From a virus (lineage: Duplodnaviria > Caudoviricetes), in IMG/VR virus record IMGVR_UViG_3300031787_000653, positions 1 through 28,199 of that record: 28,199 nucleotides of DNA. One strand, given 5' to 3'. The first letter of the stretch is position 1, and each line of letters begins with the position of its first letter. Made by a program: the position numbers and the translations under genes. Of the stretch, positions 13,328 through 27,877 are shown one piece after another. Below the pieces are notes generated by a model. The model did no database searches. It saw nothing but the letters and a program-made list of their open reading frames with translations, and was not told the origin of the DNA.

Positions 13328-15310
13328 TCACATGACTGCGATGCAGCCGTCGTCGCCGATCCAATACGGCGCCGTGTCACCGTTGCACAGGCTCTCCAAC
13401 GCACGCTTCGCGTGCTGCCGCCTTGTGTCCCGCTTGCCATCCTCCGGTGCCGGCAAGCGCTTGACCGCCTCGGCCAGCACCGCAGCCACCTCAATACCCT
13501 CGGTCTGCGCCTTGGCCATCTCCTGGATCACCTCGTTGACCACCACCTCCTTCGGCCCCAACTGACGCAGCAAGCGCACGCCCTGGAGCTCAGCCTCGAC
13601 CACCACACACGACGTGATGGGCTCCATGTCCTCATCAGCGCCGATCTGCACCACGTCCAGCGCGAAGCCCCACTCGAGGCCGTCCTCGCCGTCCTTGTTC
13701 TTGCTCAGACGCAGCGCACGCTGGCCTGACTCGGTGCGGATCACCTCGACCTCAGCGTCGGCCGCCGCACGCAGGCCTGACCAACCCCGGGCGCCCCTGG
13801 CCTGGTCCTTCCCGCTGTGGTGGATGAGCACCACCAGCGCCCCTGTGAGCTCGTGCAGGCGCTTGCAATGGCCCAGGGCCTTGCCCATGTCCTCGCCCGC
13901 GTTCTCGTTGGCCCCTGGAGTGGTCTGCGCGAGCGTGTCGACCACGATCACGCTGGTGTCCTCCCCCGCCGCCAGCACGCCCACGGCCAAGTCCTTGGCA
14001 TCCTCGAGCAGCATCAGGTTGGGGGCCCCGTTGAGCACGCTCACGGGCACGTCAGCGAGGTCGAGCTTGTTGTGCTGGGCGTAGGCGGCCAAGCGCTTCC
14101 TGAACCCGTCAGCGCCCTCGGCAGCAACGTATGCCACCCTCCCCTGCCTGACCTTGCGACCACGCCAGGGCGTGCCCCTGGCAATGGCCAACGCCAGGTC
14201 AAGCACGACGAACGACTTGCCGGCACCGCTGGCGCCGTAGATCACCGCCAGGCCCGCGGCCGGCAGCACGCCCTTCACGATCCAGGGCAGTGCAGTCGCG
14301 TTGGCGAACGTGTGGGCGGGCTCGAACTGAAACCGCAGCGGCTTGCCGTTGGCCTTGGCCGCCTCCACCGTCTCGGTGACCATGACCTCGAACTCCTCCG
14401 CGCTGGCCGGCGCACCACCAGCGATGGAGGCGCCGTGCTCGTTGGCCAGGTGCACGAAGCTCTTGCCGGTGACGACCGGCCCTTGCCCCTTGCCGAAGCT
14501 GTCCCAGCGCTGGCGCAGGATGTCGCGGCCGGGGAACTTCGCGCCTCGCTCGCTCCAGTCGCACCAGTAGTCGAACCCCTCGCCCCGTGTCTCGTGATGC
14601 AGCGCCATGCCGACCTGGAGCCACTCATCGTGGCCGGTGTCGGGGTCAAGGTGCTCCAGGCCCTGCTCGATCTGGCTGGGTGTGAGACCCAGCACCGGGT
14701 CGTCGTGGCTGGGGGTCGGTCCGTCCTGGCGCTGGAACCGCTGGCGCACCAGGCCCATCACCTCCTCCCCGATCGGGGAGACGGTGTTCTCGTTGCCGAG
14801 CACGTCGCAGATCTCCAGGCGGTTGCCGGTGACGGTCACGAATCCCTTGGTGCTGAAGGTCTCGAACCCGTAGGCGCCCTCGAACGACTTGCGGTTGAAC
14901 AGCAGGCCACGCAGCAGCACCCGCACGCCGGTGCCCGATGGGCTCCACTCCGCGTAGCTGGTCGATGCGATCGCCTCCACCTCGGGGTGGAGCTGGCCGC
15001 CGCTGACGCATCGGTCGAAGTCGAGCGCGGTCAGGTTCCAGTCAGGCAGCAGTGCAATGCCCACGCCGTCGAACCCGCGGCGGGCGGCTGCACTGCGTGC
15101 GGCGTCGAACGTGGTGAGCTGCTGCCTGTCCTCGGGGGAGCCCTGCTGCCCCTGGCGGCGTCGCCCGTTGGGGTAGTACGGGACCTTGCGGGGCTTGTCC
15201 TCGCCCTCGTGGTACTCGAGCCGCCACATCAGCCAGCCCGGGATCTCTCGGAGCTCGTCTGGGACTGTGACGGTGTTGAGGTGTGCGCTGAGTTTGGTCA
15301 CGGCGCTCAT
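13328..15310 (-). CDS. Primase-helicase (AEP-type primase + PriCT-2 + AAA_25/RepA-like helicase)
   Basis: KPRKVPY, LDFD and SPSGTG motifs; WLQVGMALH (PriCT-2); GASGAGKS Walker A, IVVDT, IHHSGKD..RGWS. Confidence 0.9.
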   Translation of the reverse strand: MSAVTKLSAHLNTVTVPDELREIPGWLMWRLEYHEGEDKPRKVPYYPNGRRRQGQQGSPEDRQQLTTFDAARSAAARRGFDGVGIALLPDWNLTALDFDRCVSGGQLHPEVEAIASTSYAEWSPSGTGVRVLLRGLLFNRKSFEGAYGFETFSTKGFVTVTGNRLEICDVLGNENTVSPIGEEVMGLVRQRFQRQDGPTPSHDDPVLGLTPSQIEQGLEHLDPDTGHDEWLQVGMALHHETRGEGFDYWCDWSERGAKFPGRDILRQRWDSFGKGQGPVVTGKSFVHLANEHGASIAGGAPASAEEFEVMVTETVEAAKANGKPLRFQFEPAHTFANATALPWIVKGVLPAAGLAVIYGASGAGKSFVVLDLALAIARGTPWRGRKVRQGRVAYVAAEGADGFRKRLAAYAQHNKLDLADVPVSVLNGAPNLMLLEDAKDLAVGVLAAGEDTSVIVVDTLAQTTPGANENAGEDMGKALGHCKRLHELTGALVVLIHHSGKDQARGARGWSGLRAAADAEVEVIRTESGQRALRLSKNKDGEDGLEWGFALDVVQIGADEDMEPITSCVVVEAELQGVRLLRQLGPKEVVVNEVIQEMAKAQTEGIEVAAVLAEAVKRLPAPEDGKRDTRRQHAKRALESLCNGDTAPYWIGDDGCIAVM

Positions 15311-15313
15311 CGC

Positions 15314-15667
15314 TCAGTCGGCGGTGCCGCCCTCAGACTCCACGAACAGCTCGCCCTGGCGCGGGTCGACGATCGGGAAGTGGCTCGCCACCGCCCGCTC
15401 GCCAAGACACTTCTGGGCGTACTCGCACTGGCGGCAGGCGTCGACGACGTCGGTGCGGTAGACGACCGGCAACCGCCCCTTGCTGGCCTTGGCCATTGCC
15501 TTGGTGACCCGCTCGAGGTCTCCACCACGCTGGGCGCTCGCCTCGCGGAAGCCCCCCGCGTACTGGTAGAGCATCGCCCGGCTGGTGCCCGCCATCTCGG
15601 CGAGCGCCTCCTGCTCCTGTGGGGTGGCGGCCATCATCCAGGCCTTCATGGGTGTGATCGTGGTCAT
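15314..15667 (-). CDS. Cro-like HTH regulator
   Basis: LAEMAGTSRAMLYQYAGGFR HTH plus a CxxC; divergent from the repressor. Confidence 0.7.
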   Translation of the reverse strand: MTTITPMKAWMMAATPQEQEALAEMAGTSRAMLYQYAGGFREASAQRGGDLERVTKAMAKASKGRLPVVYRTDVVDACRQCEYAQKCLGERAVASHFPIVDPRQGELFVESEGGTAD

Positions 15668-15694
15668 GGTGGTGAAAAGGTTGAAGGGGGCCCG

Positions 15695-15712
15695 ACTGTA
15701 GCATTTAGTAAA
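15695..15712 (-). promoter_or_regulatory. Leftward early promoter/operator (TTTACTAAATGCTACAGT)
   Basis: Extended -10 TGnTACAGT shared with the other copies of the motif. Confidence 0.65.
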
Positions 15713-15752
15713 GCCGTTGCACACCCTGCTATGACTGTGCGAGGCTATCCGG

Positions 15753-16178
15753 GTGAGGACCATCTACGACACCCGCCGCGACAACCTGCGAGCGCTCATC
15801 GGCCAGTGGGGTGGGCCGACCTCGCTGGCGAAGAAGCTGGGGCACTCGAACGGGAGCTACATCGCCCAGCTCGCCGGGCCCAGGCCGTCGCGCGAGGTCA
15901 GCGAGAAGGTGGCCCGCGAGATCGAGAAGGTGCTGGGCCTGCCGGTGGCCTGGATGGACCAGGACCACCCGACCGGCGGCCAGCAGTTGAACGACGAGAC
16001 GCTGACCGAGTGTGTCAAGGCGGTGGCCACCGTGCTTCGTGACGCAGGTCTCAGACCGGACCCGCAGGCGTATGCGACGCTGGTCCAGCTTGTCTATGAC
16101 CGCGTCAAGCTGACCGGCCGCCTGGACGAGCACCACATTCAGAAACTGACAACCCTACTCCGTGGGAGCGGACGATGA
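15753..16178 (+). CDS. CI-like repressor (XRE-type HTH, no S24 peptidase domain)
   Basis: RRDNLRALI..LAKKLG..SYIAQL..EKVAREIEKVLGLPVAWMD is typical of phage repressor N-domains; divergent from the cro-like gene. Confidence 0.8.
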   Translation: MRTIYDTRRDNLRALIGQWGGPTSLAKKLGHSNGSYIAQLAGPRPSREVSEKVAREIEKVLGLPVAWMDQDHPTGGQQLNDETLTECVKAVATVLRDAGLRPDPQAYATLVQLVYDRVKLTGRLDEHHIQKLTTLLRGSGR

Positions 16179-16327
16179 GCAACGAAGAGATCAAGCAGCG
16201 CATCCAGTACCTGATCGAGCACGGCGGCGTGTACGACGACCCACTAGGGGACATCCGCCGCCAGGTGCGGTGGGCCCTGGGCATCTCGCTGGTGACCCTG
16301 CTGCTGGTGAGCGCGCTGCACCTCTGA
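16175..16327 (+). CDS. Small membrane protein (50 aa) coupled to the repressor gene
   Basis: ATGA overlap; MSNEEIKQRIQYLIEHGGVYDDPLGDIRRQVRWALGISLVTLLLVSALHL with a C-terminal hydrophobic segment; not in the ORF track. Confidence 0.7.
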   Translation: MSNEEIKQRIQYLIEHGGVYDDPLGDIRRQVRWALGISLVTLLLVSALHL

Positions 16328-16348
16328 CCGTCGACCCCGGAGCGTGAG

Positions 16349-16376
16349 AAAACCCCACCGCCGTGTGGGGTTTTTT
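16349..16376 (+). terminator. Intrinsic terminator ending the repressor operon
   Basis: AAAACCCCAC-CGCCGT-GTGGGGTTTTTT. Confidence 0.85.
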
Positions 16377-16387
16377 GTGGGTGGCGT

Positions 16388-16405
16388 TTTAGCATGTGCT
16401 ACAGT
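16388..16405 (+). promoter_or_regulatory. Early promoter/operator TTTAGCATGTGCTACAGT
   Basis: TAGCA-NN-TGCTA palindrome overlapping an extended -10; identical to the copy at 21831. Confidence 0.75.
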
Positions 16406-16449
16406 TCACACATCGCAGCAAGGACGCTGCTTCAACCGGAGTAAACGAC

Positions 16450-16812
16450 ATGGACGTCATCCTCAACATCGGCCTCAAGAGCGACACCCTCGGCGACATC
16501 TCCGTCGTGCTGGCCAAGCAGATGCTCTGGGCCGCCGACCTGCTGATCAAGAGCGAGCGCCTGGTCCAGTCCGACACCGAGCCGACCCTGGTCGTCGAGG
16601 TCACCAGCGTCAACGGCCCGACCCTGACGCTGTCCGCCTTGCACAACCTGTCTGTCGACCTCGGCCAGGACTGCATCGCCGTCTACCGGCCCAAGACCAA
16701 GGGCGGCGCCCTGGTCGGCCCGAAGGCCTCCGCCTGGGGCCGCTTCAACCCCGAGTTTTTCATCCTGCCCGACGGCACCCGCCTGGCAGCTCCCGCGGCG
16801 CAAGCCGCTTGA
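16450..16812 (+). CDS. Hypothetical early phage protein (120 aa)
   Basis: SD GGAG; QDCIAVY..LVGPKASAWGRFNPEFF; follows a promoter motif. Confidence 0.8.
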   Translation: MDVILNIGLKSDTLGDISVVLAKQMLWAADLLIKSERLVQSDTEPTLVVEVTSVNGPTLTLSALHNLSVDLGQDCIAVYRPKTKGGALVGPKASAWGRFNPEFFILPDGTRLAAPAAQAA

Positions 16813-16836
16813 CCAGCCTGTAGCGCATGCTACAGT
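16809..16836 (+). promoter_or_regulatory. Sigma70-type early promoter TTGACC-N16-TACAGT with operator
   Basis: Near-consensus -35 and -10 boxes; TAGCGCATGCTA palindrome. Confidence 0.75.
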
Positions 16837-16863
16837 TCACCTCCCGCAACTGCTAAACGTATC

Positions 16864-21808: not shown

Positions 21809-21830
21809 GGTTTGCCCTAGGTTGCAGGGC

Positions 21831-21848
21831 TTTAGCATGTGCTACAGT
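21831..21848 (+). promoter_or_regulatory. Early promoter/operator TTTAGCATGTGCTACAGT
   Basis: 20-bp identity with 16388-16407. Confidence 0.75.
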
Positions 21849-22955: not shown

Positions 22956-23128
22956 TGCGCTGCCCCACCTGCCAAACCTGGACCGAGGTGCTTGAAACCC
23001 GCACTCGCCAGGACGGAACCCGGCGCCGCCGGTACGTCTGCGCCAACATGCACAAGTTCAACACCGTCGAGCGGGTCGAGGTGGTGCAGCACGGCGGCGC
23101 CCGCAGAAAGGCACCCAATGCTGCGTGA
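22952..23128 (+). CDS. Zinc-ribbon protein resembling the NrdR N-terminus (58 aa)
   Basis: MRCPTC..VLETR..RRRRYVCANMHKFNTVE. Confidence 0.75.
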   Translation: MMRCPTCQTWTEVLETRTRQDGTRRRRYVCANMHKFNTVERVEVVQHGGARRKAPNAA

Positions 23129-24491
23129 CTACCAGCGTGCCATCGTCGGCCACATGCTGGACCACGAGCGCTGCAACGTGTGGGCCGGCATGGGCACCGG
23201 CAAGACGGTGTCCGCGCTCACCGCGCTGCAAGGCCTGGCGGCGGTCGAGGACCCCTTCCCCGCCCTGGTGCTGGCGCCGCTGCGGGTGGCCTCCAGCACC
23301 TGGCCCAGCGAGGTGCAGAAGTGGGCGCACCTGCAAGGCCTCAAGCTCGCGACCGCCGTCGGCGACGTCAACGCCCGGGTGGCCGCGGTGCACGCGCAAG
23401 CCGACATCGTGGCCACCAACTACGAGCAGATCCCGTGGCTGGTCGAGCACCTGGGCGACCAGTGGCCCTTCCGCACCGTCGTTGCCGACGAGGCCACCCG
23501 GCTGAAGTCCTTCCGCGCCAGGCAGGGCGGCAAGCGCGCCCAGGCCCTGGGCAAGGTGGCGCACAAGCACACCCGCCGCTGGGTCAACCTGACCGGCACG
23601 CCAGCGCCCAACGGGTTCATGGACCTGTGGGGGCAGCAGTGGTTCATCGACGCCGGTGCCCGCCTTGGTCGCTCGTTCAGCGCGTTCGAGGACCGCTGGT
23701 TCCGCGTCAAGCGGGCCCCGGGCCAGCAGTACGGTGGTACGGTCGAGCTGCTCGAGGGGGCGCAGGCCGAGATCGAGAGCCGCCTGGCCGACTGCACATT
23801 GACCGTGCGCGCTGCAGATTTTCTCGACCTGCCCCCGCTGGTTGAGAACACAATCGAGGTGGAGCTGCCGGCCACCGCGCGCCGGCACTACCGAGAGCTG
23901 GAGCGCGAGATGTTCACGGTGCTGGCCGGTGGCGCCGAGATCGAGGCGTTCAACGCCGCGGGGCGCACGATGAAGTGCCTCCAGGCCGCGAACGGTGCGC
24001 TGTACACCGACCAGCAAGGAGCATGGAAGGAGCTGCACAATGCAAAGATTGACGCCCTCTCGTCCGTGGTGGAAGAGGCTGCTGGGGCCCCGGTTCTTGT
24101 GGCGTACCAGTTCAAGTCCGACCTCGCCCGACTACAGCATGCGTTCCCTCAAGGTCGGGCGCTGGACGCTGACCCTCGAACGATCGAGGCGTGGAACCTG
24201 GGACGGATACCACTCCTATTCGCTCACCCTCAAAGCGCTGGCCACGGACTCAACCTCCAGGAGGGCGGGAACATCCTCGTGTTCTTCGGCCTGTGGTGGG
24301 ACCTCGAGGCGCACGAGCAGATCATCGAGCGCATAGGCCCGACACGCCAGGCCCAGGCCGGCTACAACCGGCCCGTGTACGTGCACCGCATCGTCGCCCG
24401 CCAGACGGTCGACGAGCTGGTGCTGCAACGACTACAGACCAAGGCCTCGGTGCAGCAGGTGTTGCTCGAGGCAATGAAGACCCGACGATGA
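23118..24491 (+). CDS. SNF2-related (DEAD-like) helicase
   Basis: LRDYQ, MGTGKT, VVADE, LTGTPAPN and SAGHGLNLQ motifs. Confidence 0.93.
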   Translation: MLRDYQRAIVGHMLDHERCNVWAGMGTGKTVSALTALQGLAAVEDPFPALVLAPLRVASSTWPSEVQKWAHLQGLKLATAVGDVNARVAAVHAQADIVATNYEQIPWLVEHLGDQWPFRTVVADEATRLKSFRARQGGKRAQALGKVAHKHTRRWVNLTGTPAPNGFMDLWGQQWFIDAGARLGRSFSAFEDRWFRVKRAPGQQYGGTVELLEGAQAEIESRLADCTLTVRAADFLDLPPLVENTIEVELPATARRHYRELEREMFTVLAGGAEIEAFNAAGRTMKCLQAANGALYTDQQGAWKELHNAKIDALSSVVEEAAGAPVLVAYQFKSDLARLQHAFPQGRALDADPRTIEAWNLGRIPLLFAHPQSAGHGLNLQEGGNILVFFGLWWDLEAHEQIIERIGPTRQAQAGYNRPVYVHRIVARQTVDELVLQRLQTKASVQQVLLEAMKTRR

Positions 24492-24667
24492 GCTACCTCC
24501 CTCCCCTTCCGCCAGGCTACGACTACAGCCTGGCGAAACGCCAGAACCTGCTGCTGGGTTTCAGCCCGACGCTCCCGATCCTGTACCTGGACGAGGCGAC
24601 GATGACGTGGCGAGAACTTGACCGGCACGTCAGCGAGGTGCATCCTGCACTTGCGTCTAGCACTTGA
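24488..24667 (+). CDS. Hypothetical protein (59 aa)
   Basis: ATGA overlap with the helicase stop. Confidence 0.6.
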   Translation: MSYLPPLPPGYDYSLAKRQNLLLGFSPTLPILYLDEATMTWRELDRHVSEVHPALASST

Positions 24668-24723
24668 TCAAAGACGCCCGAGCACTGAATCCCTCGCAAG
24701 GCTCGGCTGCCTTTAGCATTTTG

Positions 24724-24751
24724 GAAAGGCAGAATATACATTATGCGTCTC
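24724..24751 (-). other. dif-like Xer recombination site (candidate attP): GAGACGCATAA-TGTATA-TTCTGCCTTTC
   Basis: Compared with E. coli dif GGTGCGCATAA-TGTATA-TTATGTTAAAT: XerC arm 8/11, core 6/6, XerD arm 4/11, with 15 contiguous identical bases. Intergenic and AT-rich in a GC-rich genome. Confidence 0.75.
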
Positions 24752-24761
24752 AAAACGGGGG

Positions 24762-24798
24762 TTGACGGGTTAGCAGTTGCTACAATATACTGTAGCAA
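24762..24798 (+). promoter_or_regulatory. Sigma70-type promoter TTGACG-N18-TATACT with operator repeats, upstream of acb2
   Basis: TAGCAGTTGCTA palindrome plus the inverted repeat TTGCTACA-N6-TGTAGCAA. Confidence 0.7.
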
Positions 24799-24851
24799 AA
24801 CGGACGTCCGCCCCCGTACCAGTGGCGGCATTTTGATGAAAGACCTGACAC

Positions 24852-25076
24852 ATGGACAACCAACACCGCCAGATCAAGGGCTACCGCGAACTGTCGCAGG
24901 ACGAGATCAACCTGATGAACGAGATCAAGCAGGCCGGCAAAGACCTGGGCGACCTCGTGGCCACGCTGAAGCAGATGCCCGAGCTCGACCAGCGCTGGAT
25001 CTCGATCGGCGCGACCGAGCTGCAGCAGGGCTTGATGGCCCTGACCAGGGGTGTGGCCCGGCCGGAGTTCTTCTGA
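24852..25076 (+). CDS. acb2: Anti-CBASS cyclic-oligonucleotide sponge, Acb2 family
   Basis: MDNQHRQIKGYRELSQDEINLMNEIK...RWISIGATELQQGLMALTRGVARPEFF closely matches Pseudomonas phage Acb2 as recalled; Y11 and K26 are present. Confidence 0.9.
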   Translation: MDNQHRQIKGYRELSQDEINLMNEIKQAGKDLGDLVATLKQMPELDQRWISIGATELQQGLMALTRGVARPEFF

Positions 25077-25165
25077 GCTTTAGCAAGCCCCGTGCATCCT
25101 GCATTTAACAATATCACCTGGATCGCGCACTCGTTGCGCGGTCGCCACACTTGAAAGGGATTGAG

Positions 25166-25444
25166 ATGCCCCAGCAATACGACCCCCTGGAGCTCCACGT
25201 AACGCACGCGATCGTGGCTGGGGTGCTCTACGACTTCATGGGCTGGCTGACTACCCGGCGAACCCGCCTCTGCCTGTCCGACCATGACGAAGCCGGGCCC
25301 GCTGTCGCGGCCATCGTCGACTTCGCCAAGATGCGCGGCCTGCGGCTGGAGGACGCCCAGGTCGAGCACTGGCAGCAGGTGCTCGTGGCGCCGCCGTGCA
25401 CACCCCAACCCGCTGCCACCCCTACCCTTCCGCCTGAGTCATAA
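25166..25444 (+). CDS. Hypothetical phage protein (92 aa)
   Basis: SD AAGGGA; VAGVLYDFMGWLT..FAKMRGL. Confidence 0.7.
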   Translation: MPQQYDPLELHVTHAIVAGVLYDFMGWLTTRRTRLCLSDHDEAGPAVAAIVDFAKMRGLRLEDAQVEHWQQVLVAPPCTPQPAATPTLPPES

Positions 25445-25452
25445 GCCTGTTT

Positions 25453-25632
25453 ATGCGTACCGACGACACACCCCCGTTGGAGACCTGGGACGACGTGCTC
25501 AAGCACTGCGAGCCAGGGTCTCCCGCCGACAGGTTCGCTAGGTTGTGCCGCACCTGCCCGAACGCCGACCTGTACCTCGACCTGTTCAAGGCGATGCGCC
25601 CAGTCGAGCCGCCGGTACCCCGTGCCTCCTGA
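25453..25632 (+). CDS. Hypothetical protein (59 aa; MRTDDTPPLETWDDVLKHC...)
   Basis: Manual translation; fills the gap and overlaps the next start; just below the track cutoff. Confidence 0.55.
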   Translation: MRTDDTPPLETWDDVLKHCEPGSPADRFARLCRTCPNADLYLDLFKAMRPVEPPVPRAS

Positions 25633-26056
25633 GACTGCGCCGCGCCAGCGGCTTGAGGTCAACCGGATCCCGCTGCGCGAGCTCGCCCACGCGGTCGAAC
25701 TCCTCGGCGAGCGCCCGCTGCTGCGCGCGCTCGACATCCACGAGAAGACCCTCTACCGCTGGCGCACCGGGCGCTGCAAGATCCCGGGCCACCAGCGCCA
25801 GGCGATCCGTGCGCTGCTCGGCGACCTGCCCGGCACCGAGGGGCGCTGGAGTGGTTGGCGGTTCGTGCGCGGGGAACTCCTCTCCCCGGGCGGGGATCGG
25901 TTTGAGGCAGGCCACGTGCTGAGCCTGGTGCTGCTGCGCCAGCAGCTCTCGGCCCAGGAGCGGGAACTGCGCCGCCTGCGCGAGCGATTGCAGATCGCGG
26001 AGACCGCGCTGCAGCACTACGCGGGCGCTGCCAACGAGGAGCGCGTGCGGGCTTAG
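25622..26056 (+). CDS. HTH + DUF3653 protein, XafT/VC1465-like candidate Xer recombination activation factor
   Basis: HTH LDIHEKTLYRWRTGRCKIP, then the DUF3653-type motif WSGWRFVRGELLSPGGDRF, then a C-terminal coiled coil. Confidence 0.75.
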   Translation: MPPETAPRQRLEVNRIPLRELAHAVELLGERPLLRALDIHEKTLYRWRTGRCKIPGHQRQAIRALLGDLPGTEGRWSGWRFVRGELLSPGGDRFEAGHVLSLVLLRQQLSAQERELRRLRERLQIAETALQHYAGAANEERVRA

Positions 26057-27009
26057 GGGATCGTGATCCGGCTGATCTGCGTGGCGGTGCCGGCCGCCGT
26101 GTTGGTCGTGCCGCCGTCGGTGGCGTAGTCGGTCGCGCAGTTCGAGTTGCCGCTGCTGAAGAAGAACAGCCCGCCGGTCGAGTTGCCCTGCACCATCTTC
26201 GGCCACATGACCCGGCCACCCTTGGTGTCGCTGCCCACCGCCAGGTAGCGCGCCCCGGCGCTGGCCGCCTGGCCGTAGAAGAACACGTCGGTGGCGGTCG
26301 GCAGCAGGCACCCCTCCCAGCGGATGGCGCAGTCCGAGCACAGCTCGAAGTAGGTGCCATCCACCTTGTTGTAGTCGCCTTGGTCGTAGACCCCGTGCTG
26401 GAAGCCCTGGATGAACCCGCCATAGATCGCGTTGCTCGAGCCCGTGATGTAGACGCCCGTGCCGGTCAACGGCGAGGCGCCGGTCTGGTGGTCGATCTGC
26501 GGGCAGGTCACCACGTTGGCATTGCTCGCCAGGATCTTGATCGCGTCGATCGTGCCGTAGATCGTGGGGTGGTCGACGTGCACGCCGATGCAGGTCGACT
26601 GCAGCACCAGGCCGGTGGCGCAGTTGTTGACGTTCAGGCCCACCACCGCGCTGTCGAACTGCACGTTGGACAGGGCCACCGCGGTGACCCCGGTCTTGCT
26701 GTTGCCGTCGACCGCCACGTTCCTGAGCTTGATGCCGGTCTTGAACCCGGCCGTGGTCGAGAGCACCGTCATCGAGTTGGTGCCAGCCTTGAGCAGCGCT
26801 CCAGCCTCGAACTCCAGATGGCAGCTCGAGGGCAGCGTGAGCCCGGTGTTCACCAGGTAGTTGCCCTTGGGCACGTAGACGGTGCCCGCCGCGGCGTTGA
26901 TCGCTGCCTGGATCGCGGCGCTGTCGTTGGTGGTGCCGTCACCCCTGGCACCGTAGGCTTTGACGTTGACCGGGGCGTCGGTCATGGAGTACGGAACACG
27001 GGTCGTCAC
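26053..27009 (-). CDS. Tailspike/depolymerase with pectate-lyase-like right-handed beta-helix
   Basis: VNVKAYGARGDGTTNDSAAIQAAINAA..VYVPKGNY followed by beta-helix-like repeats. Confidence 0.85.
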   Translation of the reverse strand: MTTRVPYSMTDAPVNVKAYGARGDGTTNDSAAIQAAINAAAGTVYVPKGNYLVNTGLTLPSSCHLEFEAGALLKAGTNSMTVLSTTAGFKTGIKLRNVAVDGNSKTGVTAVALSNVQFDSAVVGLNVNNCATGLVLQSTCIGVHVDHPTIYGTIDAIKILASNANVVTCPQIDHQTGASPLTGTGVYITGSSNAIYGGFIQGFQHGVYDQGDYNKVDGTYFELCSDCAIRWEGCLLPTATDVFFYGQAASAGARYLAVGSDTKGGRVMWPKMVQGNSTGGLFFFSSGNSNCATDYATDGGTTNTAAGTATQISRITIP

Positions 27010-27401
27010 TTGCTCCCTTTCATCGCAGCCGCGGCTGCCGGGATGATCTTCTCGGCCGAGCGGCCCACGACGTAGCCGCCCAGGCCGAACTCAACGATCG
27101 ACCAGAGCTTGAGGTACTCGGCCTCGCTCAAAGCCGGCGCGGCCCAGCCGAACCAGCGGGCGACGATCAGCCCGCCGAAGGTCAGCATCAGGATCGGGCG
27201 CCAGTTGGCCGCGAGCCAGTGGGAGGACGCCGCCTCGGTCTTGACGATCTCGGCCCGGCCGGTGAACTCGGCGAGCTCACCCTTCTGCGCCAGCTCCAGC
27301 ATCGCGAGCTTGGCCTGGTCGCGCTGGGCCGGGTCCGGCCAGAGCCGGTCGATGAGCTTGCCGCCCACGTCCAGGGCGGCGGTGATCGGGTCGTGTGCCA
27401 T
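27006..27401 (-). CDS. Holin, 3TM (GTA-type) family
   Basis: GKLIDRLWPDP..EAASSHWLAANWRP, hydrophobic helices, LGGYVVGRSAEK. Confidence 0.85.
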   Translation of the reverse strand: MAHDPITAALDVGGKLIDRLWPDPAQRDQAKLAMLELAQKGELAEFTGRAEIVKTEAASSHWLAANWRPILMLTFGGLIVARWFGWAAPALSEAEYLKLWSIVEFGLGGYVVGRSAEKIIPAAAAAMKGSK

Positions 27402-27877
27402 CAGGCCTCCATCAAATCGCTGATGCGGCGGGCCCAGCCGCGGGAGAACGCCGGCCAGTTGGGCAGGCCTGCCATGAACCGCAGACGCTGCGCCAGGATG
27501 CGCAGGCGCAGGGCGTTGGTGTCCTGGGCGTAGGCGGCGGCCAAAGTCTTCGGACCGATCAGCCCGTCAGCCTCGACGCCGAGTGCACGCTGCAGCCAGC
27601 GGGTGGCCTGGGCGGGCCCTGAGTTGACTGCGCCGTCGAACACCGCATAGCGGATGCCGGGCGGCAGGTCGTCGGCGCGGATCGGCTTCCAGTAGCGCTC
27701 GAGGTAGATGCGCTTGGCCAGGTCCAGCGGCAGCTCCCGCATGTCGCCCTTGTAGCCCACCTCCCGGGCCACTGCCTCGGTGACGCCAAAGCGGGTCCTG
27801 CCCCCGGGATCGTCCTCGTGGTCGGAGAAGTCTCCCTCGTGACCGAGGAGCAACTGGAACGCGGTGTCGAAGTTCAT
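27401..27877 (-). CDS. Endolysin, glycoside hydrolase family 108
   Basis: HEGDFSDHEDDPGGRTRFGVT, FDGAVNSG, LQRALGV.ADG.IGPKTL and FSRGWARR motifs. Confidence 0.92.
   Translation of the reverse strand: MNFDTAFQLLLGHEGDFSDHEDDPGGRTRFGVTEAVAREVGYKGDMRELPLDLAKRIYLERYWKPIRADDLPPGIRYAVFDGAVNSGPAQATRWLQRALGVEADGLIGPKTLAAAYAQDTNALRLRILAQRLRFMAGLPNWPAFSRGWARRISDLMEA

Follow-up and report, generated by a model that had tools for sequence, protein, structure and literature searches.

The main finding of this study is that the tailed phage represented by IMG/VR virus record IMGVR_UViG_3300031787_000653 (Caudoviricetes; 28,199 bp, analysed as a whole and called the window below) encodes no recombinase, and that the slot between its helicase and lysis genes is occupied by a candidate Xer-exploiting module of the XafT family: a dif-like site (dif being the site at which bacterial chromosomes are unlinked) accompanied by a gene for a helix-turn-helix (HTH) protein with a DUF3653 domain. 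We consider it likely that the phage integrates at its host's dif site by means of XerC/XerD, and that it likely also collects accessory gene units at the same site. Directly visible are the anatomy of the module, its conservation, the absence of a recombinase, an exchange with an integrase in close kin, and insertion junctions that fall within the overlap of the site.

The window encodes a BPP-1-like podophage, with genes for GP7 capsid, Bbp16, Bbp19, head-tail connector, terminase, primase, PolA, SNF2 helicase, holin and endolysin, arranged in the BPP-1 order (capsid, portal, Bbp16/Bbp19, PolA-helicase arm). The record has a completeness rating of 64%, and record G001 (43,818 bp, rated 100% complete) matches it at 99-100% over almost all its length. 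The capsid is 73-74% identical to those of the Burkholderia phages BcepC6B and KL4 and 61% to that of BPP-1; the helicase is 60% identical to that of BPP-1 and 52% to that of BcepC6B. An initial annotation, made from the letters alone, had seen no integrase in the early arm, and this was confirmed: tyrosine and serine recombinases are absent from that arm, from the window, from the near-identical G001 and from 15 of 15 records that are at least 90% complete. PF00589 was found neither in 14 of these records nor in G429, in a search where BPP-1 and BcepC6B were positive, and the resolvase and serine recombinase families PF00239 and PF07508 each gave no match in the 15 records (transposase families were not searched for). 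PF13614 (ParA) was likewise found in none of the 15, by which ParA-based maintenance as a plasmid prophage was ruled out, other partition or replication systems not having been searched for.

In related phages the slot has another occupant. BPP-1 (Rauchvirus) and BcepC6B (Ryyoungvirus) have gene order and replication genes in common with the window phage, but carry a tyrosine integrase between the helicase and lysis genes, exactly where the window has its Xer module, and neither has a dif-like site or a DUF3653 gene; the attachment site of BPP-1 is the end of a His-tRNA. Three uncultured relatives (L329, L330, L344) also have an integrase in that slot, without dif-like site or DUF3653 gene. 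Among 71 loci dereplicated by helicase, 45 have gene and site, 5 have an integrase and none has both, while the others comprise 4 with sites without an intact gene, 1 with the gene and a variant site, and 16 with neither (the slot end being out of view in 12 of the 16); these proportions are biased, because most loci were recruited via their DUF3653 gene. In a quick helicase tree of 59 of the 71 loci, from which the 12 with the slot end out of view were left out, L329 and L330 group with two phages that have gene and site (SH-aLRT (Shimodaira-Hasegawa-like approximate likelihood ratio test) 97).

The dif-like 28-mer at 24724-24751, noticed in the initial annotation, was borne out on several counts. 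It has an 11-6-11 layout on the minus strand, with an 11-bp XerC arm ending CGCATAA, and its inner XerC 7-mer and overlap are identical to those in dif of Bordetella bronchiseptica, Neisseria and Thiobacillus as given in the accessible text of PMC3025954, while the XerD arm has 4 of 11 matches to the Bordetella XerD arm. The pattern CGCATAA-N6-TT occurs 2 times in the window vs 0.01 times expected from shuffles, the second match being a site at 25434-25461 that was missing from the initial list. We term sites with the overlap TGTATA and a promoter class A, and those with other overlaps class B.

If the 28-mer is an attP, it should be conserved in relatives carrying the gene, as the initial annotation had reasoned, and its core was indeed found beside the gene in most of them. 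A stretch of 600 bp or more ahead of the DUF3653 gene was available in 61 of 68 dereplicated loci; the inner XerC arm is kept upstream of the gene on the minus strand in 55 of these 61 (opposite strand, 2/61), the exact overlap plus inner arm in 46, and the remaining 6 have variant sites. The XerC arm and overlap are near-invariant across loci and the XerD arm is variable. The core is kept among phages with helicases just ~50% alike, and a distant BPP-1-like lineage (G017; gene 34% identical) has an equal pair of site and gene. A same-orientation site downstream of the gene was found in 0 of 56 loci, and therefore the site delimits no smaller unit than the complete genome. Five loci (L020, L045, L068, L080, L082) have a class A site whose overlap differs and whose promoter region is altered, and behind it an open reading frame (ORF) that by eye resembles an HNH nuclease; the variant overlap may indicate another host dif.

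The ORF at 25622-26056, predicted at the outset to encode an HTH plus DUF3653 protein, matches DUF3653 with an E value of 1.3e-8 and 35.2 bits (cut-off 22.4), and DUF3653 clusters are its nearest neighbours in the Atlas. Its AlphaFold model (predicted local distance difference test (pLDDT) score 86.7) shows four helices forming an N-terminal domain, plus a small beta hairpin and one long helix. Apart from two uncultured phage proteins, its structural matches are weak (E above 0.04) and are to XRE/Cro helix-turn-helix proteins, on the side of the four-helix domain, and a PDB fold search with the model returned weak HTH matches only. Homologues form 118 clusters by single-sequence search and 403 by profile, and none was found in GenBank phages at E 0.01. 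No DUF3653 ORF is present among the 5 ORFs scanned in the pTLC record, the link to XafT (VC1465) being the shared Pfam family only, and we infer solely from family membership that the window protein would activate XerD. Some homologues (P0024, P0028, P0047, P0059, P0073, others) are of a long form with a proline-rich N-terminal extension of ~50 amino acids (aa).

The surroundings of the site suggest a link to temperate control. The repressor/cro switch described in the initial annotation was recovered as a repressor candidate, via PHROG 12107, and a Cro-like gene, via Atlas look-alikes, and the gap between the two divergent genes holds an operator-like palindrome. The sole promoter found in 24400-26200, which adjoins the XerC arm, also has a copy of this operator between its hexamers; no terminator was found. 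An operator is placed at most 45 bp from the class A site in 44 of 49 loci, and the phage repressor presumably binds it. On the XerD side, the palindrome GTGCA-N3-TGCAC occurs within 140 bp in 47 of 47 loci examined, the distant lineage included, and could represent either an element of a promoter or a site for accessory binding. A structured RNA in this region was considered and rejected: single sequences form inverted repeats, but the consensus fold retains the invariant palindrome only, without covariation and without an Rfam match of note, and for these reasons the repeats are treated as DNA palindromes. The degenerate XerD arm is itself half of an operator-resembling inverted repeat (24707-24732), whose sequence varies among site types while its symmetry is often kept. 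Repressor bound there could hinder excision.

According to the accessible text of PMC6744903, XafT consists of HTH_XRE and DUF3653 and can activate XerD when FtsK is not involved; its gene adjoins the XerC arm of an attP whose XerD arm is degenerate. The window phage and TLC-phi of Vibrio cholerae have in common a dif-like attP, a matching overlap, a degenerate XerD arm, an HTH plus DUF3653 gene on the XerC side and the absence of an own recombinase (PMC6744903, PMC9226527, accessible text). We favour a process where the circularised genome would present its class A site to host dif, the overlap presumably being common to both, and XerC/XerD would recombine them, with the DUF3653 protein activating Xer without FtsK, as XafT does. 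The degenerate XerD arm would then prevent FtsK-driven excision of the prophage, a protection that has been proposed for TLC and the gonococcal island (PMC9226527, accessible text). In the lysogen, the promoter that adjoins the XerC arm would be kept off by the repressor, so that the activator would be made only on infection or induction. In the accessible text of PMC9226527, XafT is undetectable after integration and its regulation is left open; the operator at the site-adjacent promoter bears on this question of how an activator is shut off. The same reaction would insert units of 0.4-1.4 kb, as small circles carrying counter-defence genes, and each inserted unit would have its own promoter or a start codon supplied by the site. 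TLC, as far as these sources describe it, differs in being a small rolling-circle satellite that needs no accessory DNA, whereas the window phage is a 44-kb tailed phage with PolA, primase-helicase, terminase, portal and capsid, in which more than one site stands in line, the site has an operator of repressor type, and the XerD-side palindrome is conserved.

Overlooked in the initial annotation was that dif-like sites and the gene units inserted at them form an array in the slot (Table 1). In the window, the site at 25434-25461 contains both the stop of a 92-aa ORF and the ATG of a 59-aa ORF, and a tentative third site sits within the remnant of a block that closes inserted units in relatives. 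Among 50 loci with the helicase in view, the number of exact cores is one in 30, two in 11, three in 2, four in 3 and none in 4, so that 16 of 50 have 2-4 sites. Core matches in the slot (73 kb) number 70 on the minus strand vs 2 on the plus strand; outside the slot (579 kb) there are 19.

Table 1. Features of the window that belong to the module, its array, its borders and the temperate switch
Feature	Position	Strand	Remarks
Divergent Cro-like gene	15314..15667	-	Atlas look-alikes XRE/Cro/YdaS 0.91-0.92; no Pfam match
Repressor candidate	15753..16178	+	PHROG 12107, E 3.3e-13
Operator copy ahead of early genes	16386..16404		more copies 16818-16836, 21829-21847; weaker 15696-15712
SNF2-type helicase	22992..24491	+	left border of module slot
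Conserved XerD-side block	24618..24732		palindrome GTGCA-N3-TGCAC 24638-24650, operator-like palindrome, inverted repeat 24707-24732 overlapping XerD arm
Main dif-like site (class A, candidate attP)	24724..24751	-	XerC arm 24751-24741, overlap TGTATA 24740-24735, degenerate XerD arm 24734-24724
Sigma-70-like promoter beside XerC arm	24762..24791	+	1 found vs 0.2 expected; palindromic operator 24772-24781 between hexamers
Acb2/Tad1-family anti-defence gene, first array cargo gene	24852..25076	+	PF24729, E 3.8e-19
Third dif-like site, tentative, decayed, 7-bp centre	25103..25131	-	read by eye
92-aa ORF, no known family	25166..25444	+	ends within XerD arm of second site
Second dif-like site (class B)	25434..25461	-	XerC arm of consensus type; 6-bp overlap not that of class A; first letters of XerD arm TTATG
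59-aa ORF, no known family	25453..25632	+	begins within XerC arm of second site
HTH + DUF3653 protein, candidate XafT-family Xer activator	25622..26056	+	XerC side of sites, transcribed away from them
Tail-spike-like, holin and endolysin genes, convergent	26053..27877	-	right border of module slot

Comparison of filled and empty alleles locates the junctions. In five pairs (L065/L064, L041/L042, L028/L036, L032/L078 and L047/L042) the overlap's first base is where the right-hand alignment begins. Ungapped comparisons numbered 12 and involved 8 filled loci; in 11 of them (in two weakly) the empty allele follows the left site towards XerD and the right site towards XerC, the exception being L276/L275, where the empty allele follows the left site at both sides. 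No whole unit recurs among 24 units, which have in common an end block of ~180 bp and one methylase pair, and circular intermediates were not seen among the assembled contigs examined. In four cases (L041:8877-8904, L015:9808-9835, L032:7337-7364, L047:7259-7286) a further dif-like site is nested in the end block, ~110 bp ahead of the main one; its XerD arm is near-canonical and its overlap differs. Pfam matches were obtained for 10 of 28 cargo proteins tested, namely five DNA methyltransferases, Mom, Acb3, Acb2/Tad1, an exonuclease and Vut_1, and 8 of these 10 belong to DNA-modification or anti-CBASS (CBASS, the anti-phage signalling system based on cyclic oligonucleotides) families; the other 18 had no match. 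A second cargo scan added Mom, a SLOG protein and NinX.

The class B sites are of a different character. They overlap a ribosome-binding-like sequence and an ATG, and lie in repeats of ~70 bp that are 78-89% alike; the ATG in their XerC arm opens a frame of at least 30 aa in 18 of 23 cases, and the proteins started in this way (n=17) have only short N-terminal matches in common. These properties, together with the promoter and operator that accompany every class A site, and a class B insertion (L031 vs L056) that ends away from the site, would suit an explanation in which homologous recombination shuffles the repeats as cassettes of a regulatory kind, with promoter, operator and ribosome-binding site. 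The likeness to dif would then be left over from a small element captured earlier, and the HTH protein would be a transcription factor. We rank this as the least likely of the explanations considered, and indeed highly improbable, as in class A pairs the switch is confined to the overlap and inner XerC arm (at most ~17 bp) and the core is conserved across the divergent helicases noted above. Moreover, class B XerD arms have on average 7.9 matches of 11 to host-type arms (16 arms), compared with 6.3 for class A (27) and 4.6 for ordinary start regions (99 controls), the p-values (2e-10, 5e-9) overstating independence because the arms are related.

The class B overlaps also bear on the order of strand exchange. 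Integration at dif could follow a XerC-first route, with an XafV-like protein and the junction resolved by replication or a phage nuclease, which would allow the joining of class B sites with differing overlaps. XafV is, in the accessible text of 10.64898/2026.06.12.731946, a structural relative of XafT that aids only XerC-initiated reactions. The near-perfect XerC arm of all sites is consistent with such a route, which fits the class B overlaps better: 19 distinct sites have overlaps other than TGTATA, and 15 of them keep the T beside the XerC arm. We nevertheless regard it as quite unlikely, since class A sites combine a fully matching overlap with a degenerate XerD arm, the TLC pattern, and the overlap is intact on both sides of class A junctions.

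Several observations weigh against integration at dif, foremost that no member of the clade was found integrated at host dif in any search. A scan of 185,579 species genomes (GTDB) gave 3 partial, unrelated matches only; these, all in Rhodobacteraceae, were rejected as members and had no dif-like site. Two homologues come from bins labelled Limnohabitans and Rubrivivax, and a Comamonadaceae-like family of 401 genomes was picked by Comamonadaceae-type dif: a close homologue was present in 0 of these 401 (best E 6.4e-14), and no phage marker occurred within 20 flanking 20-kb stretches of their genomes. Comamonadaceae dif sites mostly have the same overlap, but their XerC arms, and those of their small elements, are unlike that of the phage. 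The longest contig with a homologue is 48.3 kb among the 118 clusters and 46.8 kb among the best 120 of the 403. In IMG/VR, a phage-side flank joined to a canonical XerD arm was found at 14 loci, none of the clade, and the XerD side of the phage joined to any XerC arm at 18 loci, all of them known free forms or one unrelated record low in guanine plus cytosine. Contigs of 6 runs gave no joint or loose end at the site among the matches listed, where contigs drop rare forms and X5 was without cover; one of the runs, X1, may be the source sample, and no RNA run was listed as holding the phage. The recruitment of most loci by their DUF3653 gene, already mentioned, and the persistence of sites without it count on the same side: 4 loci keep dif-like sites without an intact DUF3653 gene, one of them the complete genome G429 (direct terminal repeats; G429:C1:42728-44688 = L260), which has four sites and neither DUF3653 gene nor integrase. 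Together with G430 (L276), L398 and L371, it makes up a group with 1-4 dif-like sites, no intact DUF3653 gene and no integrase where searched, L371 having a short remnant of the gene.

Two further searches are of related scope. DUF3653 matches were present in 7 of 401 Pseudomonadota genomes, with no marker genes of the window in the six regions inspected, and 120 IMG/VR loci with canonical dif gave weak A1 matches beside the site in small records, and no clade member. The initial annotation had suggested a search for related prophages; none away from dif turned up, but neither did any that was split at the 28-mer and sitting at host dif.

These results raise the alternative that the phage integrates never or rarely, and that the Xer module serves the free or episomal genome in capture and shuffling of counter-defence cassettes and in multimer resolution. 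The failure of every search to reveal a prophage, the arrays of 2-4 sites in 16 of 50 loci, the 4 loci with sites and no gene, and the existence of other tailed-phage records with a fully canonical dif, several near terminase genes, all fit this explanation. It is unlikely in our judgement, as the module takes the place of an integrase in close kin, the repressor, Cro-like gene and operators are retained, ParA is absent from all 15 near-complete records, and the class A overlap is fixed at the common dif overlap, which recombination among phages only would not require. Integration at host dif remains our preferred explanation. The initial idea of an Xer module in place of an integrase stands as regards the absent recombinase, the site kept beside the gene and the integrase in the same slot of kin; it is weakened by the lack of a member at host dif and by G429, which keeps four sites without the gene, and it had not taken the array into account.

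The tailed-phage records of other groups with a fully canonical dif, several of them adjoining terminase genes, are L115, L120, L124, L127, L136, L145, L152 and L164. Here the site could serve dimer resolution of episomal phages or FtsK-dependent integration.

Elements that do reside at chromosomal dif were found with distant relatives of the protein. Distant HTH-DUF3653-like homologues are present in 19 of the 401 genomes of the Comamonadaceae-like family; of the 20 matches, 15 are placed beyond the XerC arm of a canonical dif, and 9 of those 15 have a degenerate-XerD copy 0.8-1.8 kb away. G155:C1:118829-129341 (L318), too, has this layout: it is a 10.5-kb element that sits at a dif of the chromosome and has a distant homologue at its XerC side, and four of its larger ORFs were tested and had no Pfam match. 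Because distant homologues share the layout at chromosomal dif, the geometry of site and gene in the phage is that of real dif-integrated elements; none of the examined dif-integrated chromosomal elements is a tailed prophage. In at most 19 of the 401 genomes, tiny elements of 0.8-1.9 kb carry a distant HTH-DUF3653-like gene at dif, some in tandem (L449-L468; G586, G534, G777, G559, G641, G459, G669, G721, G680), and these are equal in size to units of the phage arrays. A chromosomal dif-like site at G108:C1:34692-34713 (L306) has an XerC arm identical to one that is common in the clade, and an imperfect XerD arm, with no marker genes of the window nearby.

In integrons and the pdif modules of Acinetobacter, recombination sites whose centres vary enclose small genes unrelated to one another, pdif modules using inversely oriented site pairs on plasmids. 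The phage array resembles both in its small unrelated genes between sites, and resembles integrons in that the sites are co-oriented and that filled and empty alleles exist; class B genes take their start codon from the site. It differs from integrons in that there is no IntI or other recombinase and no attC-type hairpin (no covarying fold, no Rfam match of note), and from pdif modules in that its sites, of Xer type, are all in one orientation; the carrier is a phage, not a plasmid. As in non-tailed Xer-exploiting elements, the Xer activator gene adjoins attP next to a variable cargo region with defence-related genes, but in the accessible accounts of those elements the cargo is not described as bounded by repeated dif-like sites inside one genome.

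Tentatively, we extend our proposal to a widespread tailed clade in which the integrase may have been replaced by an activator of host Xer and the attachment site may have become an integron-like platform, where host Xer would serve for lysogeny at dif as well as for loading individual counter-defence genes into an array, the site would give a promoter or start codon, and the repressor would control the activator; we see this fuller scheme as possible, with the balance leaning slightly the other way. The Xer-exploiting phages described in the accessible literature that we found are filamentous, satellite or tailless, the IMEX (integrative mobile elements exploiting Xer) having been extended to double-jelly-roll phages (PMC12715192, accessible text). 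In the open-access literature we found no paper on a tailed phage that integrates via Xer or on dif-bounded cassettes inside a phage; subscription papers were not covered, and the list of 179 DUF3653 proteins in the XafT paper may include tailed prophages. If true, the swapping of an integrase for a dif site and activator by a large tailed clade (403 protein clusters) would extend this strategy to Caudoviricetes, and lifestyle calls based on integrases would score such phages as lytic. The array would offer phages a concrete way to acquire genes against restriction and CBASS, and the cargo provides a list of candidate counter-defence genes.

A feature of the phage outside the slot is a tail-region gene composed of long tandem repeats (2-1507 in the window; 15100-16850 region in G001).
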